NCBI GenBank assembly: GCA_026770705.1
Contig: JANJGN010000028.1
Span: 15,996,001-16,060,000 of the forward strand
DNA: 64,000 nucleotides
Origin: Isurus oxyrinchus
Lineage: Eukaryota
Reading direction: 5' to 3'
Shown: piece by piece, positions 21,586 to 58,804 of the stretch
Numbering within the stretch: position 1 is the stretch's first letter
Layout: each line of letters opens with the position of its first letter
Notes under the pieces: generated by a model
What the model was told of the DNA's origin: nothing
Seen by the model: only the letters and a program-made list of their open reading frames with translations
Database searches by the model: none
Program-made: the position numbers and the translations under genes

Positions 21586-21830
21586 AAATAAGAAAACACA
21601 TAAGAAAATGTGTATGCTTCTAAAAGCAACAACAGACCAAAATGCAGACATGCCTTGTTCCACAGTCCATGGCAGGGTATTTGAACAGTCCCTGTGCACT
21701 AGAGACATAGTGCAAATTCTATTTGCCCTGTACAAAACGGAATAATGGCATTAATTTTCAATTACAAAAACAAAAACAGAATTAGCTGGAAAAACTCAGC
21801 AGGTCTGGCAGCATCGGCGGAGAAGAAAAG

Positions 21831-21869
21831 AGTTGACGTTTCGAGTCCTCATGACCCTTCGACAGAACT
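21831..21869 (-). ncRNA. hammerhead-like motif, inverted copy in the left PLE arm
   Basis: Exact reverse complement of 25065-25103. Confidence 0.68.
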
Positions 21870-23064
21870 TGAGTTTGAGTCCAAGAAAGAGTTGAAATAT
21901 AAGCTGGTTTAAGGTGTGTGTGTGTGGGGGCCGGAGAGAGAGAGAGAGAGAGAGAGAGGTGGAGGGAGGGGTGTGGTTGTAGGGACAAACAAGCAGTGAT
22001 AGAAGCAGATCATCAAAAGATGTCAACAACAATAATACAAAAGAACACATAGGTGTTAAAGTTAAAGTTGGTGATATTATCTAAACAAATGTGCTAATTA
22101 AGAATGGATGGTAGGGCACTCAAGGTATAGCTCTAGTGGGGGTGTTTTTTTTTAAATAATGGAAATAGGTGGGAAAAGGAAAATCTTTATAAGTTATTGG
22201 AAAAAAAGGAAGGGGGAAACAGAATGGGGGTGGGAATGGGGGAGGGAGCTCACGACCTAAAGTTGTTGAATTCAGTATTCAGTCCGGAAGGCTGTAAAGT
22301 GCCTAGTCGGAAGATGAGGTGTTGTTCCTCCAGTTTGCGTTGGGCTTCACTGGAACAATGCAGCAAGCCAAGGACAGACATGTGGGCAAGAGAGCAGGGT
22401 GGAGAGTTAAATGGCAAGCGACAGGGAGGTTTGGGTCATTCTTGCGGACAGACCACAGGTGTTCTGCAAAGCGGTCGCCCAGTTTACGTTTGGTCTCTCC
22501 AATGTAGAGGAGACCACATTGGGAGCAACGAATGCAGTAGACTAAGTTGGGGGAAATGCAAGTGAAATGCTGCTTCACTTGAAAGGAATGTTTGGGTCCT
22601 TGGACGGTTTGGAGAGAGGAAGTGAAGGGGCAGGTGTTGCATCTTTTGCGTGGGCATGGGGTGGTGCCTAGGAGGGGGTTGAGGAGTAGGGGGTGATGGA
22701 GGAGTGGACCAGGGTGTCCCGGAGGGAGCGATCCCTACGGAATGCCGATAGGGGGGGTGAAGGGAAGATGTGTTTGGTGGTGGCATCATGCTGGAGTTGG
22801 TGGAAATGGCGGAGGATGATCCTTTGAATGCGGAGGCTGGTGGGGTGATAAGTGAGGACAAGGGGGACCCTATCATGTTTCTGGGAGGGAGGAGAAGGCG
22901 TGAGGGTGGATGCGCAGGAGATGGGCCAGACACGGTTGAGGGCCCTGTCAACGACCGTGAGTGGAAAACCTCGGTTAAGGAAGAAGGAGGACATGTCAGA
23001 GGAACTGTTTTTGAATGTAGCATCATCGGAACAGATGCGACGGAGGCGAAGGAACTGAGAGAAT

Positions 23065-24683
23065 CAGCTTCCAACCTGATAGTCGCCCAACCTCGGACGG
23101 CCCGCTTCTATCTCCTACCCAAAATCCACAAACAGAACTGCCCCAGTAGACTGATCGTCTCAGCTTGCTCCTGCCCCACAGAACTCATTTCTCGTTATCT
23201 TGACTCCCTTCTCTCTCCCCTTGTCCAGTCCCTTCCCACCTACATCCGTGATTCCTCTGACACCTTATGTCACATCAACAATTTCCAGTTCCCTGGCCCC
23301 AACCGCTTCCTCTTCACCATGGACGTCCAATCCCTCTACACCTTCATCCCCCACCAGGATGGTCTGAGGGCCCTTAGCTTCTTCCTCGAACAGAGGCCCG
23401 AACAATCCCCATCCACTACTACTCTCCTCCGTCTGGCTGAACTTGTTCTCACGCTGAACAATTTCTCCTTCAACTCCTCTCACTTACTCCAAATAAAAGG
23501 TGTGGCTATGGGTACCCGCATGGGCCCCAGCTATGCCTGTCTCTTTATGGGGTATGTGGAACATTCCTTGTTCCAGTCCTACTCCGGCCCCCTTCCACAA
23601 CTCTTTCTCCAGTACATCGATGATTACTTCGGTGCCGCTTCATGCTCTCGTCGGGACTTGGAAAAATTTATTAATTTTGCTTCCAATCTCTACCCCTCCA
23701 TCATTTTCACGTGGTCCATCTCTGACACTTCCCTTCCCTTCCTTGACCTCTCTGTCTCAGTCTCTGGTGATAGACTGTCCACCAATATCCATTACAAACC
23801 CACCGACTCCCACAGCTATCTCGACTACAGCTCCTCACACCCCGCTTCCTGTAAGGACTCCATCCCATTCTCCCAGTTCCTTCGCCTCCGTCGCATCTGT
23901 TCCGATGATGCTACCTTCAAAAACAGTTCCTCTGACATGTCCTCCTTCTTCCTTAACCGAGGTTTTCCACCCACAGTCGTTGACAGGGCCCTCAGCCGTG
24001 TCTGGCCCATCTCCTGCGCATCCGCCCTCATGCCTTCTCCTCCCTTACAGAAACATGATAGGGTCCCCCTTGTCCTCACTTATCACCCCACCAGCCTCCG
24101 CATTCAAAGGATCATCCTCCGCCATTTCCGCCAACTCCAGCATGATGCCACCACCAAACACATCTTCCCTTCACCCCCCCTATCGGCATTCCGTAGGGAT
24201 CGCTCCCTCCGGGACACCCTGGTCCACTCCTCCATCACCCCCTACTCCTCAACCCCCTCCTATGGCACCACCCCATGCCCACACAAAAGATGCAACACCT
24301 GCCCCTTCACTTCCTCTCTCCTCACCGTCCAAGGACCCAAACACTCCTTTCAAGTGAAGCAGCATTTCACTTGCATTTCCCCCAACTTAGTCTACTGCAT
24401 TCGTTGCTCCCAATGTGGTCTCCTTTACATTGGAGAGACCAAACGTAAACTGGGCGACCGCTTTGCAGAACACCTGCGGTCTGTCCGCAAGAATGACCCA
24501 AACCTCCCTGTCGCTTGCCATTTTAACTCTCCACCCTGCTCTCTTGCCCACATGTCTGTCCTTGGCTTGCTGCATTGTTCCAGTGAAGCCCAACGCAAAT
24601 TGGAGGAACAACACCTCCTCTTCCGACTAGGCACCTTACAGCCTTCCGGACTGAATACTGAATTCAACAACTTTAGGTCGTGA
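23065..24683 (+). CDS. PLE reverse transcriptase + GIY-YIG endonuclease (5'-truncated, open frame, ~539 codons)
   Basis: RT motifs: RFYLLPKIHK, YIRDS, FTMDVQSLYT, QIKGVAMGTRMGPSYACLFMG, QYIDD, LPFLD, SIPFSQFLRLRRICS. These are followed by a Cys/His linker (CPHKRCNTC...HFTC) and a GIY-YIG domain (NLVYCIRCSQCGLLYIGETKRKLGDRFAEH...GLN). The first ~98 aa of the listed 637-aa ORF come from the antisense arm and are not real. Confidence 0.92.
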
Positions 24684-25064
24684 GCTCCCTCCCCCATCCC
24701 CACCCCCTTTCTGTTTCCCCCTTCCTTTTTTTTCCAATAAATTATAAAGATTTTCCTTTTCCCACCTATTTCCATTATTTAAAAAAAAACACCCCCACTA
24801 GAGCTATACCTTGAGTGCCCTACCATCCATTCTTAATTAGCACATTCGTTTAGATAATATCACCAACTTTAACTTTAACACCTATGTGTTCTTTTGTACT
24901 ATTGTTGTTGACATCTTTTGATGATCTGCTTCTATCACTGCTTGTTTGTCCCTACAACCACAACCCCCCCTCCACCTGTCTCTCTCTCTCTCTCTCTCTC
25001 TCCGCCCCCCACACACACACCTTAAACCAGCTTATATTTCAACTCTTTCTTGGACTCGAACTCA

Positions 25065-25103
25065 AGTTCTGTCGAAGGGTCATGAGGACTCGAAACGTCA
25101 ACT
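25065..25103 (+). ncRNA. minimal type-I hammerhead-ribozyme-like motif in the PLE terminal repeat
   Basis: Layout: agtt (stem I) - CTGTCGA (variant of CUGANGA) - a - gggtc/atgag/gactc (stem II hairpin) - GAAA - CG - TC (cleavage triplet) - aact (stem I). Stem III is the loopless palindrome ACGT. PLE terminal repeats are known to carry such minimal hammerheads. Confidence 0.7.
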
Positions 25104-26816
25104 CTTTTCTTCTCCGCCGATGCTGCCAGACCTGCTGAGTTTTTCCAGGTAATTCTGTTTTTGTTTTTGTTTTGGATTTCCAGCATGCGCAGTTTTTTTG
25201 TTTTTATTTTTTAATTTTCAATACAGTTAATGGTACAACTCTTCAAGGTCTCTGCTTTCTGCCAGTTTGGCCTCTTGAGGATTACTTCACCATTGGCAGC
25301 TGTGCTTTCAGCTTCCTAGACTTGAAATTCCCTCCCTAAACCTCTCAACTTCTCCCTCCTTCTTTAAGATACCCACTAAAACCTACCTCTGAGCAAGCTT
25401 TAGTCACCTGTCCTGATATCTCTATGTGGCTCAGTGTCAAGTTCTGTTGATGCTCCAGTGAAGCATCTTGGGATGTTTTACCATGTTAAAGTCAACCGTG
25501 TAAATGTAATTGTTACATGGTTGTGCTCGTGCAAGGCCTCACTTCACTCATGTGTGGGAAAAGGTGGATTTCCTACTGCCACAGAGAGGGAAAGTGGCTG
25601 GTTCCACTTACCACAAAGCCAATTGTCCTGGAAGCATGGGTAGGAGCCATGAGGGAAAAAATCAGCAAATTTTAATACACACATAGTTTTAATAAATTCA
25701 TTAATGACCTTGTGGTTATTGTTAGGATTTTCACATCATCATTTACTCTTAGTGGCTTAAATGAGCATTGAAATCATCTTTTTGAGCTGTGAATTGAAGT
25801 GGTGCTGATTGTCTCATCTGCACCAAGACTGAATTAAGGAAATGATAATGAAGGACTTACTTGAGGATGTAATAAGGTGCTTATTCAAATGTGACCTTCC
25901 TTCCCCCTGCTTTATCTTGACATCGGAATTATAGAATTATACAGCACAGATGGAGGTTGTGTGGCCCATCGTGTTCATTCTGGCTCTTTGTTAGGGATCT
26001 AATTGATCCCATTCTCCTGCTATTTCCCCATGACCTCAAAATTTGTTCCCTCCAACTATTTGTCCAATGCTCTTTTGAATGTCACTATTGAGTCAGCTTC
26101 CAAAATGGCCTCCTTAATGTCTGCTCAACAATGTCTCCTAACAAGTGTAATTGCCTGTCTGACTCGTGGGGGACAGTGGCCTCCCTAGGCCCTGAACCCT
26201 CATGATCAAAGAGGCCGACACCAGGAACATGCCCTTTGCGCATTGGGGGCACACCCACGCCCACTCCCCTGAGAAGATAGCACCCACTTTCCTTCCCACC
26301 CTTTTAAAAGCTTTTTATTAACTGTCCGCAGCTGCCTGCGCATGCCTACCATACTGTGACATGAGCAATGCAATATTGGGGTAAATTGGCTCGTAAACAG
26401 GTTCAATTGATCCTTAATTATTTAATTACATATGGCGGGTGGGCTGCCGCTTTCGCTGCTTGCCCACCGCCTCCTCCTGCCCTGTGATATGGGGATAGAC
26501 TTGGGGTGGGTGAGAAGGTGGTGGGCCATCCACCTCTCATATTTTGCATTCCCTCCTCCCCCCAGCAAAAAAAAACATCCAGCAGGGTTGGGGGTGGGGG
26601 GGGGGGCATAAAGTCTAGCCCAAAGGCTCCAAACTCCCTAGTGCTTTTGTCGCTATCAGTTGACGCTCAGCTCCAGTTATGGAGGTCAGAGGGTCTGCTG
26701 AGGTGGTTTTAAATCATGAACAGTAAAGCCTTGCAGACCTCTCCACCCCTCCACCTCTCACTCCCCCTTTAAAACTCTCCTTAAAACCTACCTCTTTGAC
26801 CCTTTTGGTGACCTGT

Positions 26817-44446: not shown

Positions 44447-44736
44447 GCTGAAAAGAAAGACATGTTGAAGCTTTTCATCATGCACTCATCAGGACAAATG
44501 CAAGAATGCCAAATTTCAAACAATCACAACAATTTCTACCGCAGTTTGAAATCTGGCATTCGTGCATTTGTCCTGATGGGTGCAAGATGAAAAGTTCATC
44601 AGGACAAATGCAAGAAAACCAAATTTCAAACCATCACAACAATATATACCACAAATGAAATTTCTTGCATTTGTCCTGATGAGTGCAAAACTAAAAGTTT
44701 TGACAACATGTCTCTCTTTTCAGCAATATTTAAGTT
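44447..44736. mobile_element. double fold-back PLE mini-element with four hammerhead-like modules
   Basis: Termini are inverted (gctgaaaagaaagacatgttg / caacatgtctctcttttcagc). Modules of type ttgtcCTGATGAgtgcaagayGAAAagctTCgacaa occur in -,+,-,+ order, the third truncated. A degenerate TSD, tttgggataccct / tttaggatatctt, lies inside a DeuSINE tail. Confidence 0.78.
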
Positions 44737-46695
44737 TTTAGGATATCTTGAGCTCATGAAAGGTGCTATAGAAATGAAAAACTTTTCTCTTGGTCTTGTC
44801 TGAAGTTTTCTAGCTTGATCAGATGGTTATCTACTGTCAGTTCTGATCTTTTATATTTAGCAAGTTCTCTGCATTCTGGAATTGAAGGAGGGGATTATGT
44901 GGTCCCAATATCAAGTAGGGGAAAAATGTATTCCTTCCTAATGATAGGTCGCTCGTATTGAGGCTTCAGTACGCCTGTATTACTTTGCCTGGCGCAGCAC
45001 AATGGATTGTTTAATTCAACATGCAATTATATCTACAATGCTGTTAAGCTTCTAATTTAAATCTTTGTTTAGCTGCGCAGTATAAATACACTTTGATTCC
45101 TGGGATGAATTTGTAAATTTACTTCTGACTCCCAACGGTTCGAAATGATTTGCTATCAAATTAATCTTTCCCTTCCATCTCGAAATTCGGAAAGATACCA
45201 CCACTCAGAGTTGCTACTCCGTGGCGTGGCATTTAAACCACGCAGGGAAAATTCGGGAACATTGCACACTTGTAGGAAAATTGGTGTGCCACATAGCTGG
45301 GGGGAGCAATGTGCCTATCACCCAGTCCTCAGGGCCGACCAGAGATTCAGACTACGTACACAATGAGCTAAATCCATTATCTCCCCAGACATCTGGATTC
45401 AAACCAGATGTTTAGCTTTGTGTTAGATTAAGTGTTTCTTATGAGCCGAGAGCTATCTGAGCACCTCGGTCTGGATGAAATCCATAAGCTGGGCTTTGCC
45501 GTTAAATCTTGTTTGACTCTATTCAGCCTGCTAGTAAACTAGGAAGTCCCCCTTTGCTGTGCAGATATACCTCATCTGTATTTCAAACTCAACGTTCAAT
45601 GAAAAAAGTTAAGCATTGGGAATAACTTTATCTTCTCATGCATGTGGAGGGTGACATCAAAAGGGTGCAAACGTGGGCGGACAGTTTTAGTGCTTTTGCA
45701 AACGTATTGCCCTGTTTGGGGAAAGAAGCACGTTAAACACCGGCGTATTCAGCTTCCTTTCTTCAATTCCCAATGTGGATTATGTCAAAAAGCCTGATTG
45801 GTGTAGCGAGGTGGGCTGTTCCGCACTGGGAAATGGTACGAAATGCTTCGAGAGAGGGGTTTGCACCTTTACAAAGTTGTTGGGAGGAAAAAAAGTAATT
45901 TTTAAATTCTCAGATATAAAAAGGACGCAATTGCCATGTTATTGGCAAAAAACCGAAATAATAATTTAATTGAAATGGTTCTTAAAATTAAATTTGCATA
46001 ATTTAGGTCTATTTACAGATTGCTTCCATCTCCCTATAGCAGGCACCAAGGCTTGTCTCCCTCTCCTGTTTCGAGCCAGAACTTGTGCTTTGAATGTTTG
46101 CATTCGCTGCACCAAGTTGTTGCCTGTTCCAATCCAGTTTGCGCCAGCGGCACGAACTTGGCTGCGGGTTCCTACCGAATCTGAGGTCATGCATCACCTT
46201 CAATAGCAGATGACCCTAGCCTAACTGAGACTGTATTGGCCACACTAAATGACTATCTGTTCTGACTACGCATTCCTTCAAGAGCTGCCAGCTCATTATA
46301 CCGAGCAGAGTCGAGGCGGATGTGATCAGGCTGATGGACGCAAACTCAAGAGTGCAGACCTGCCAACTACAACTTTAGTGACATCAAGTTTCTGACAAAA
46401 CTGACGATTAGAAGAGAGAATTGTTCTTTATTCACCCCCCGCCCCACCGAACATACAACAACTGCAACACTAGCTTGCATTTATATAGCACCCTTCATGC
46501 GTCTTAAAGCACTTCACAGGCGTGCTATCAAACAAAATTTCACACCCAGCCACATAAGGAGATAGGCAGATGACCAAAAGCTTGGTCAAAGAGGAGGTTT
46601 TAAGAAGAGTCTTATAGGAGGTAGAAGAGTAGAGAGGTGAAGAGGTTTAGGGTCCAGGCAGCTGAAGGCATTTCCACCAATGATGGAACAATTAA

Positions 46696-46790
46696 AACAG
46701 AAAATGCTGGAAAAACTCAGCAGGTCTGGCAACATCTGTGGAGAGAGAAACAGAGTTAACATTTCGAGTCCGTAAGACTCTTCAGAGCTG
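46696..46790 (-). mobile_element. Neptune-type PLE terminal fragment
   Basis: Reverse complement reads ctCTGAAGAgtcttacggactcGAAAtgttaactctg...gccagacctgctgagtttttccagc. TSD gatggaacaattaa / gatggaagaattaa at 46682-46695 / 46791-46804. Confidence 0.78.
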
Positions 46791-54088: not shown

Positions 54089-54256
54089 AGAAAGTGCTGG
54101 AAAAACCGCGCAGCTCTTCCGAAGAAGAGTCACGTTTGACTCGAAATGGTAACTCTGTTTCTCGTTCCACAGATGCTGCCAGACCTGCTGAGTTTTTCCA
54201 GCACTTTCTGTTTTGTTTTGGATCTCGAGCATCCACAGTACTGTGCTTATACTTTA
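54089..54256 (+). mobile_element. Neptune-type PLE terminal fold-back fragment
   Basis: A short antisense arm (agaaagtgctggaaaaa) is followed by the sense terminus ccgaagaagagtcacgtttgactcgaaa...gagtttttccagcactttctg and the tail. Degenerate TSD gtgttggattaagcat / gcgttggataaaacat. Confidence 0.75.
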
Positions 54257-54920: not shown

Positions 54921-56852
54921 TTATTTTTCCTATAGTTGGCACTAGGTTGTCAGCCTTGCCTGGACAAGCCGAGAACGCAAGAACATGAGAAACAGTTGAT
55001 CTGAAAAACCAAAGTGCCATATTGGTATGGGTGAAGGGACTTCCTCCTAAGCTTTGGGTGAACAGACGTTGCTGGGTCAGAGGAGACCTTTGCACTTGAC
55101 CTGGATAAGTACTTGAACAAATTTCTTGATGGCACTGGTTACATGGAAAAAATAACATCTCAGCATTGACACCTTCACCTCGACCAGCAGTAAATTCACA
55201 GATAGCAAAAGCAGGAAAAGGTCCACCCCACCCTTTCCATTTACTCTGGTCTCGTGCCCAACTGCATACAGGGTCAGGACACCCTACCAGCTGTTTACAT
55301 CTGTCAAGCCTGGATTGGGTCCTATTGAAACTGTTCCAAAATAAACATTAAGGCTGACTATCATTGGAAAGCTCTGAAAAGTTTCTGTCTTGCAAGTTTG
55401 ATGATTGCAAGGTGGTGGACTCCCTTTTGAAGAGTCAGCAGTTTTTTGTTTCCTTAAGAATAGCGGATGCTATCTGTGTGGATAATTGCAATGGCTACAC
55501 ATACAACTATCAGCCTGTTGTCCCTTTAAATAAACAAGTAGAGCTTTTGATATGTCACAATGGATAACGTCTCTACTCCCCTTTAGTCTAAATGTATTAA
55601 GGGATGTGTGATGGGGAAGACTTCAGAAATTCAGTGACTTTTTATCATCCTTCAGGTTATCTTTGGCAATGCTCCCATGAGTTGGGATGATGCATTGCTT
55701 CATGATGAAAGGAATGTTGTGGCAACTGTGCAGGCCTACTGATCCCTCTTATCAGCTTCCTGGCTCTTGACTTGCATACTCTTCACCTCTCTTGATTCCG
55801 TTCCACTTTTGAGGTATTATATTACTTTGAGCTGTTCGCTAAATTGTGGCAGCTGAATGCGAAGGCCAAAGTGTGACAGGACCTGAGTGTGCCACTCCTG
55901 TGATGTGTGTGCTTTATACAACAATTTGTAAAGTAGATCTCCCGAGGTGTTGCTCTTGGTGGGTCAAAGATCATGCAGCTCTATGACGAGAACATCTCAA
56001 CAAATAAGATGAAATAAGTACAGGAAGGGCATACCATTGAGGGTGTGCCGCACTGTCAGAGGTGCTGTCTGTTGGATGCAAAGGATGCCCACTTGGGTGG
56101 ATACCAAAGGCCCTATGGCATCATTCAAAGAAGAACAAGGGAGTTCTCCCCGGCGGCCTGGTCAAAATTGAACCTAAAACAGATGATCTGATCATTATTA
56201 CCTTGCTGTTTGTGGACCTTGTGTGCAAGTTGGGTGCTATGTTTTCGACATTACAAGAGTGACCATACTTCAAAGTAAGTAAGTACTTTATTGGCTGGCC
56301 ATATACTTTAAAGACATTATAGAGGGAGAAAGAAACAGGAGATCTCTGCATATTGTCAGTCTGGTTTTTGTGAGACTTACTGGTAAGTCTGAGCCCCAAA
56401 GCAACCTTGAACAATGTAGCCTTTCTGTTAGCATTTTAGCCAAAGGCTAACTTGGAGTATAAAATTTCATGTCACCAACTACTGGGGTAGAATTTTATGG
56501 CCCCCATCGCGGTAGGGGGCAGGCCCATAAAATGCAGCAAGCGATTCAAAAGCCCGTCAACTTCAGCAAGACCGGTGGGGCATTAAATGTAGATCTTAAC
56601 AAATGCATATCTCAACCATGTGGACTTTTCGGTTCATCCCAGACTGCATGTAGATATGTAGTGGATCAAAAATTGAAAACTTTCCTTAGAAAAGAAAAAA
56701 CTCAATATAATTCTCTGACCTTAAAAGGCACCTTGATGAGATTGCCTTTTCTGAGGGAAATTCCTTGTTGCTCTCGCTATGTTTAAGGTTACCTAGCATC
56801 CTACCTCCTTGCTGATGTCAGATTCATGATGTCAGTGAATGTTAATTGTATA

Positions 56853-56987
56853 ACAAAAACAGAATTAACTGGAAAAACTCAGCAGGTCTGGCAACATCGG
56901 CGGAGAAGAAAAGAGTTGACGTTTCGAGTCCTCGTGACCCTTCAGCAGGATTTCCAGAATCTGCAGTTTTTTGTTTTTATCTCAATA
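56853..56987. mobile_element. Neptune-type PLE terminal fragment (antisense arm + sense tail)
   Basis: Near-identical to 21770-21865, followed by the tail gatttccagaatctgcagttttttgtttttat. Perfect TSD ttaattgtata at 56842-56852 and 56988-56998. Confidence 0.85.
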
Positions 56988-58275: not shown

Positions 58276-58804
58276 TTTTTTTTTTGAAAAATATACTTTA
58301 TTCATAAAATATCTGGGAAAACATTACAGAACATTTCAAAATCACCATCACAAAAGTACAATCAGATTCAACTTTTACACATGGATCCCGAGGTGCATCA
58401 ATACAATCAATGAATATTACAGTCATTTCAATACGGTCAGTGCAGACAATCAGACAATGGTATTGGACTCAATACAAAACCAGAATTACCTGGAAAAACT
58501 CAGCAGGTCTGGCAGCATCGGCGGAGAAGAAAAGAGTTGACGTTTCGAGTCCTCATGACCCTTCGACAGAACTGTCGAAGGGTCATGAGGACTCGAAACG
58601 TCAACTCTTTTCTTCTCCGCCGATGCTGCCAGACCTGCTGAGTTTTTCCAGGTAATTCTGTTTTTATTTTGGATTTCCAGCATCCGCAGTTTTTTTGTTT
58701 TTATCCAAAGGTACTGGACTTATCAACATACATCATGTTGCACTCTGAGGTGCTTCAGTACAATTATAACACAATTAGTATTTAATGCATTTAATTCAAT
58801 TCAT
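58276..58804 (-). mobile_element. polyadenylated retroposon 3' end (L1/Tx1-like), containing the PLE hairpin
   Basis: The minus strand ends gAATAAAgtatatttttc followed by poly(A). TSD ttaaat at 58270-58275 / 58805-58810, splitting an L2 RT fragment. Confidence 0.65.
58474..58705. mobile_element. Neptune-type PLE hairpin mini-element (perfect 89-bp palindrome + tail)
   Basis: 58481-58569 is the exact reverse complement of 58572-58660, followed by the ~45-nt tail. TSD caatggtattggact / caaaggtactggact at 58455-58469 / 58706-58720. Confidence 0.88.

Follow-up and report, generated by a model that had tools for sequence, protein, structure and literature searches.

Metazoan Penelope-like elements (PLEs) carry minimal hammerhead ribozymes (min-HHRs) in their pseudo-LTRs (pLTRs), described by Cervera and De la Pena (2014, PMC4209133) with a 4-bp stem I, an extra nucleotide between A9 and stem II, a G10.1-C11.1 pair and a loopless palindromic stem III (GAAAC-GUH), and occurring as dispersed single copies and as tandem pairs about 3.3 kb apart. 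According to the same source, these minimal motifs are slow even when A6 is present. In the Poseidon-clade PLE of Anolis (Frangieh et al. 2024, PMC11167929), a hammerhead with a canonical core lies beside the ORF start; it cleaves in vitro only with protein, its catalytic mutants do not impair insertion in vitro, reverse transcription starts in a downstream tail and, in the available part of that paper, no reads end at the cut site. The published sections on this element and on endonuclease-bearing (EN+) PLEs (Craig et al. 2021, PMC8557442) treat the in vivo job of PLE hammerheads as an open question. A natural change of core position 6 is documented in phage Bcep176, whose A6C hammerhead is slow but active, being slow in Mg2+ and better in Mn2+ (PMC3088659, PMC7151607). 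Finally, a 2026 retrozyme preprint, in the part available, sampled one chondrichthyan with canonical and minimal descriptors.

Here we examine a hammerhead-like motif in a 64,000-nucleotide stretch of Isurus oxyrinchus DNA (hereafter the window). The motif shares the pLTR position, stem I length, extra nucleotide, G10.1-C11.1 pair, stem III and copy arrangement of the min-HHRs, but has U or C at position 6, whereas all 44 of the 44 visible rows of the supplementary alignment of PMC4209133 have A6. Position-6 variants would have been missed in that study because its search descriptor imposed the core. As in Bcep176, the change at position 6 is natural and the rest of the core is intact; the phage example is a single sequence with C6, whereas U6 is found here in tens of thousands of animal retroelement copies accompanied by a derived C6 subfamily. 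Like the Anolis hammerhead, the motif lies beside an ORF start with a downstream tail and gives no sign of ends at the cut site; unlike it, the motif belongs to a Neptune-type element, has an altered core and is known from sequence alone. The literature examined yielded no natural A6U hammerhead, no study of this PLE family and no measured A6U rate, although an earlier record is possible. We consider the motif a real, lineage-fixed core variant of a known motif, the surprise being limited because the element, the minimal architecture and slow position-6 variants were all already known.

Anatomy of the motif

An earlier note, made from the letters of the window, had described a hammerhead with a non-canonical core at this position and expected cleavage after C25099. 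Our analysis confirms that positions 25065 to 25103 form a predicted type I hammerhead of the minimal kind, carried by a Neptune-type PLE and bearing U6 in its core, and on this predicted anatomy the cut is correctly placed (C17 is position 25099). Its parts are as follows.

25065..25103, + strand: the whole motif, a minimal type I hammerhead with U6 (CUGUCGA) and a predicted cut 3′ of C25099
25065..25068, + strand: stem I 5′ strand, AGTT; also the pile-up site of copy 5′ boundaries and putative transcription start
25069..25075, + strand: core, CTGTCGA, read from the sequence
25072, + strand: core position 6, U in place of A (T25072); only 135 A6 copies exist in the same flanks
25076, + strand: extra A between core and stem II
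25077..25091, + strand: stem II (5 bp, GGGTC/GACTC at 25077-81/25087-91) and loop II (ATGAG), with cross-family covariation
25092..25099, + strand: GAAA (25092-95), CG (25096-97), U16.1 (25098) and C17 (25099), read from the sequence
25095..25098, + strand: ACGT palindrome; stem III would form only between two copies, following the dimer model of PMC4209133
25100..25103, + strand: stem I 3′ strand, AACT

Ten of the 11 conserved core bases are present and position 6 is U, so the motif departs from the CUGANGA...GAAA...UH consensus. The traits of min-HHRs are otherwise found: an extra nucleotide after A9 (A25076), the G10.1-C11.1 pair (G25077-C25091), a loopless ACGU palindromic stem III in 16 of 16 family representatives, and a pLTR location, with motifs 3.3 kb apart that bracket intact ORFs (loci L056 and L058). 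The loopless stem III, which had been presented as unusual, is ordinary and a defining feature of min-HHRs in PMC4209133.

An Rfam scan of the window returned no hammerhead family at E≤1 and also missed the window's decayed A6 copies, and the folding energy of the 39-mer was no better than that of shuffled sequences (z=0.06) and is not counted as support. Because neither gave anything, identification as a hammerhead rests on the core words, stem II covariation and the PLE context. Among 16 hand-picked family representatives, the first pair of stem II changed on both sides (G-C in 11, A-U in 4), the second takes three types (G-C, A-U and G-U), and 98.8% of cells are paired; these rows are related and the search pattern for the old family imposed pairing, though that family first surfaced in a structure-blind search. 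Stem I is nearly invariant across the 16 rows (AGUU/AACU), with no compensatory change; the covariation check proposed for both stems supports stem II. The A6 subfamily with the core CUGAAGA has a C-A mismatch in stem I, beside the core pair (seen also in the window at 46786-46789), and the hammerhead may therefore have been weakened in an A6 branch as well. When monomers are folded in silico, a predicted pair between U6 and A15.1 would stabilize an inactive rod by about 1-1.5 kcal/mol in U6U7 forms, which is weak evidence, and the hammerhead-compatible fold is not the most stable prediction for any of the 16 subfamily consensuses.

The host element

The motif lies downstream of a truncated PLE reading frame and is surrounded by the following features.

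23065..24683, + strand: 3′ part of the PLE ORF, 5′-truncated (RT, CX4CXXC linker, GIY-YIG with CCHH), 94.5% protein identity to the intact L056 copy
25033..25039, + strand: putative promoter element, a TATA-like box some 30 nt ahead of stem I, with the sequence TATATTT here and TATAAAT in an older A6 subfamily
25120..25152, + strand: a 10-codon upstream reading frame that overlaps a GT donor-like site (25149)
25153..25205, + strand: PLE tail region, in which copy 3′ ends fall; reverse transcription would start here by analogy with PMC11167929

Two of the four tandem loci examined have an open frame (926 and 925 codons) between U6 motifs spaced 3.3 kb apart; of the remaining two, one has a broken frame and the other lacks a long PLE frame. 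The 915-codon ORF of the L056 copy matches Pfam RVT_1 (E=7e-8, above the cutoff) and GIY-YIG (E=9e-4, below the cutoff), and its protein has a CX4CXXC motif before the endonuclease, a CXXC inside it and two His residues downstream (CCHH). These features point to an autonomous EN+ PLE of Neptune/Nematis layout, the type being assigned from domain layout. As in the EN+ PLEs Neptune and Nematis in the available part of PMC8557442, a single ORF combines RT with a C-terminal GIY-YIG, a linker of the CX2-5CXXC type and CCHH, and copies form partial tandems and inverted 5′-truncated arms with an optional tail; we see no difference in layout.

Subfamilies also differ around the motif. In the region corresponding to 25104-25152, older subfamilies have a pyrimidine tract and CAG just before the ATG, resembling a splice acceptor; younger ones lost this acceptor-like AG and carry the GT donor-like site and a stop after 10 codons. 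No splice joint from the GT site at 25149 is listed in 23 runs of assembled contigs, whose RNA status is mostly guessed, and this absence carries no weight. In the youngest subfamily, the spacer upstream of stem I now resembles the stem II 3′ strand plus GAA (25042-25079), and a predicted hairpin, which arose alongside C7, would hide stem I and the core in read-through RNA; the upstream-hairpin construct folds no better than shuffles (z=0.24).

Other copies in the window and a second hammerhead family

Further copies of the element are present in the window.

21764..23064, - strand: inverted arm of the 25065 insertion, with a second U6 motif at 21831-21869 and 97.3% identity to 23867-25170
46694..46789, - strand: older A6 copy with a 3-nt deletion
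54115..54239, + strand: older decayed A6 copy (CCGAAGA)
56852..56948, - strand: C6 copy (56945), stem I 5′ strand missing
58471..58704, no single strand: short head-to-head insertion with two U6 motifs joined at the stem I start (motif arms 58535-58606)

The other copies named in the earlier note, with U6 at 21831 (- strand) and in both arms at 58535-58606 and C6 at 56945 (- strand), were all found. Its description of intact stems and GAAA-CG-UC holds at 25065 but not in the + arm at 58572 or the 56948 copy, which lack the stem I 5′ strand because both are inversion junctions. Of the relatives said to keep A6, the one at about 54119 is, as claimed, an older decayed copy with CCGAAGA, and that at about 46785 does have A6 but also bears its deletion. 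The one at 44676 is no older relative; the motif there comes from a decayed member of another hammerhead family, for which the element's protein matched at none of 10 loci. This second family has a 2-bp stem II, an AGCT palindrome, 127 exact copies and, among the matches listed, A6 in 96 of 100.

A 12-bp AT-rich direct repeat, at 21754-21765 and about 25211-25222, flanks the inverted insertion and is likely a target-site duplication. Positions 44572-44710 hold two decayed, partly inverted copies of the second family, with A6 kept. Elsewhere (G000:C21:83216018-84757858), seven copies of the second family, all on one strand and sharing one N7 change, are spaced about 200-300 kb apart, which suggests a large tandem segmental repeat. 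At another locus (L397, G000:C1:34322937-34325969), a truncated PLE copy directly abuts an interstitial TTAGGG array.

Genome counts and spread of position-6 variants

The 36-mer at 25069-25104 (U6C7) has 58,078 exact copies in the genome, against none for the reversed control pattern, far more than chance would give; A6 in the same young flanks accounts for the 135 copies given above. U6U7 occurs in 14,117 exact copies with the young loop and 4,510 with older loops, C6 in 1,599, and the older A6 forms in 2,310 and 1,415. Exact matching undercounts older families, and these ratios therefore overstate the U6 share. Decay of one copy as the source of U6 is ruled out by the copy counts and by the flanking of intact ORFs. 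Likewise, U6U7 is a real group and not a product of CpG decay of U6C7, because its 14,117 copies far exceed the 1,866 of a CpG-decay control.

Clustering of 251 copies with an intact promoter region gave 22 groups, the number being preset; three groups of 1-2 copies were set aside and the 19 groups with 4 or more members comprise 7 with A6, 11 with U6 and 1 with C6. When the ORFs of 11 groups are placed in a tree with an A6 group as root, U6 subfamilies form a ladder ending in U6C7. The boundary between A6 and U6 is weakly supported, one A6 subfamily grouping with a U6 one at 42% support, and A6U may have arisen once or more than once. Among the matches listed, C6 is present in 91 of 100 of the 130 copies with the diagnostic upstream sequence of the C6 subfamily, and some of its copies are paired 3.2-3.5 kb apart. 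By these counts, the C6 group is a true spreading subfamily, derived after U6. Read from the groups and the tree, A6U appeared early and persisted through 11 sampled U6 subfamilies and one that spread with C6; it is older than the youngest subfamily, to which the earlier note had confined it. U6 forms were found in contigs of four of four organism labels, which may not be distinct species.

Boundaries of copies

We sampled 271 copies without selection on the core. While 142 read through upstream, 48 start at -36 to -31 from the cut site (AGUU), only 4 at -2 to +3, and 77 elsewhere. In a strict subset (n=169), 28 starts fall at stem I versus 2 at the cut site, and copies of the U6/C6 type (31 versus 1, n=140) and of the A6 type (14 versus 1, n=73) behave alike. 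Loose ends at the stem I start were found in four of four contig sets. Since the 5′ boundaries of copies concentrate where stem I begins and not at the cut site, the RNA that is copied was likely uncut. A TATA-like box stands about 30 nt upstream of stem I in all groups of clustered copies, and we infer a transcription start on the first stem I base, that distance downstream of the box.

Genome-wide, junctions number 1,312 at -34 (U6C7 only) versus 231 at the cut site, and the latter shows no excess over neighbouring sites (115 at -3 and 184 at +3). Of thirty cut-site junctions inspected, 18 join inverted arms and 6 are deletions on the same strand; the other 6 were assigned to non-element flanks, although two or more of them look element-derived on inspection. 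For the A6-enriched downstream type, the counts are 13 and 3 versus 1,917, numbers that are too small to interpret and affected by the same artefacts. On their 3′ side, copies end in the tail, downstream of the hammerhead, as in PMC11167929, which leaves the priming role once proposed for the hammerhead unsupported.

Constraint on the motif after A6U

After A6U, the motif changed in loop II (three changes counted), at N7 (U to C), at H17 (U to C) and in one stem II pair (A-U to G-U), whereas C3, U4, G5, G8, A9, G12, A13, A14, A15.1, U16.1, stem I and the CG palindrome stayed unchanged. Five of these six changes land on the 7 of 38 other motif sites that hammerheads leave free (binomial p=0.001, or p=0.005 with one loop change discounted, 4 of 5). 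Comparison of the earliest U6 subfamilies with the youngest, taken as an ORF clock, shows differences at 10 of 90 and 14 of 105 four-fold sites. On this clock, 1.1-1.3 changes were expected in the 10 core bases and none was seen (P about 0.3), and 3.4-4.0 were expected in the 31 constrained sites and one was seen (P 0.09-0.15). Conservation of the motif is significant within the motif and not against the ORF clock. Moreover, the 29 nt after the ATG are about equally conserved, with one change in the same interval, so that the whole leader may be constrained for other reasons. Within the constrained part two CpG dinucleotides survive, while among four-fold CpG sites of the ORF 2 of 5 and 2 of 6 were altered, both small numbers.

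Samples anchored downstream of the motif, and thus blind to the core, gave no further subfamily-shared core variant. An apparent core change in a 6-copy U6 cluster (G12 to A, 15.2 to T) was set aside as CpG decay, CG, TG and CA coexisting with that loop. The spacer between the TATA-like box and stem I (25040-25064 in the window; 20-23 nt) changed far faster than four-fold sites of the ORF, which hints at turnover under host pressure.

Discussion

The earlier note had offered two readings, a tolerated variant core or a fold kept as a signal. Both are live, and the evidence favours a blend in which the fold and the catalytic bases are kept. We give an even chance to a slowed, protein-assisted ribozyme that is still under selection and whose cut is dispensable for copying, A6U having been fixed early in a lineage that kept expanding. 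On this reading, the RNA would have the first stem I base as its 5′ end, some 30 nt past the TATA-like box, and reverse transcription would begin in the downstream tail and proceed through the hammerhead on an uncut template. Short and head-to-head copies would result when it runs off the 5′ end of the RNA, and tandem units when it continues through the ORF. Stem III would form only between two copies, via the ACGU palindrome, and U6 would lower the cleavage rate and could also pair with A15.1 in the predicted inactive monomer rod. Slow cutting that remains at C17, which might plausibly strip off a capped leader or retire RNA late in the cycle, would keep G8, G12, C3 and H17 intact. That the cut is dispensable for copying finds a parallel in the anole element, because the tail start of reverse transcription, the catalytic mutants that still insert and the lack of read ends at the cut site all match what PMC11167929 reports. 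Against a slowed ribozyme weigh the non-significant ORF clock, the equally conserved 29 nt after the ATG, the lack of compensatory change in stem I, the absence of a cut-site footprint among copy boundaries, the predicted folds and the low activity of CUGA-region mutants in the deep mutational scan of PMC9901934.

Several observations would also fit a motif that no longer cuts and survives as a signal at the 5′ end of the RNA, recognized by shape or by sequence, for protein binding or RNP assembly, or as a promoter overlap at +1 to +39: the copied RNA appears uncut, the motif begins at the putative start site behind the TATA-like box, an internal promoter lies downstream of the start in Drosophila Penelope (PMC2377424), and position 6 went from A to U to C with no bulk return to A. 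We nevertheless find this rather unlikely, given that the changed sites are those that a working hammerhead leaves free (N7, loop II, and H17 within H) while G8 and G12 stayed, and that a pure promoter role does not predict the A-U to G-U change in stem II. It is more doubtful still that the motif is a dead relic, A6U having killed the ribozyme in one source element whose lineage spread for other reasons, the remainder being too young to decay. The divergence between the first and latest U6 subfamilies is only about 0.11-0.13 substitutions per four-fold site, so that zero core changes are unremarkable (P about 0.3), and hammerheads may simply parasitize PLEs, as PMC8557442 suggests in its available part; however, the clustering of changes within the motif, with five of the six confined to 7 of its 38 other sites (p 0.001-0.005), argues against a relic, as do, in small numbers, the two surviving CpG.

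At the other extreme, the dimer and protein context could let U6 be fully tolerated, so that cutting would match that of the ancestral ribozyme. In favour of this, no other core base was lost, a U-to-C change at H17 followed A6U, and in a different hammerhead an A6C mutant had rates of 0.07-0.33 per minute in 1-10 mM Mg2+ (PMC7151607). We regard such full tolerance as very improbable, since published position-6 changes lower activity (PMC3088659, PMC9901934) and minimal PLE hammerheads start out slow, as noted above; in the deep mutational scan of PMC9901934, mutants of the CUGA region are low in activity and only the C3-G8 swap restored it. Beyond the preferred reading of a slowed ribozyme, the lineage may have traded ribozyme speed for template survival, the loss of A6 (to U, then C) leaving more RNA intact for reverse transcription and selection still acting on the fold at the capped 5′ end, a speculative and on balance unlikely extension.

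Descriptor searches that require CUGANGA miss the most abundant hammerhead-type motifs of PLEs in such genomes. Because natural A6, U6 and C6 forms sit in nearly identical backgrounds, each in a subfamily that spread, the role of cutting in mobility is directly testable. If the trade of speed for template survival were true, a natural series from active to attenuated ribozymes would coincide with the largest expansions of the family.
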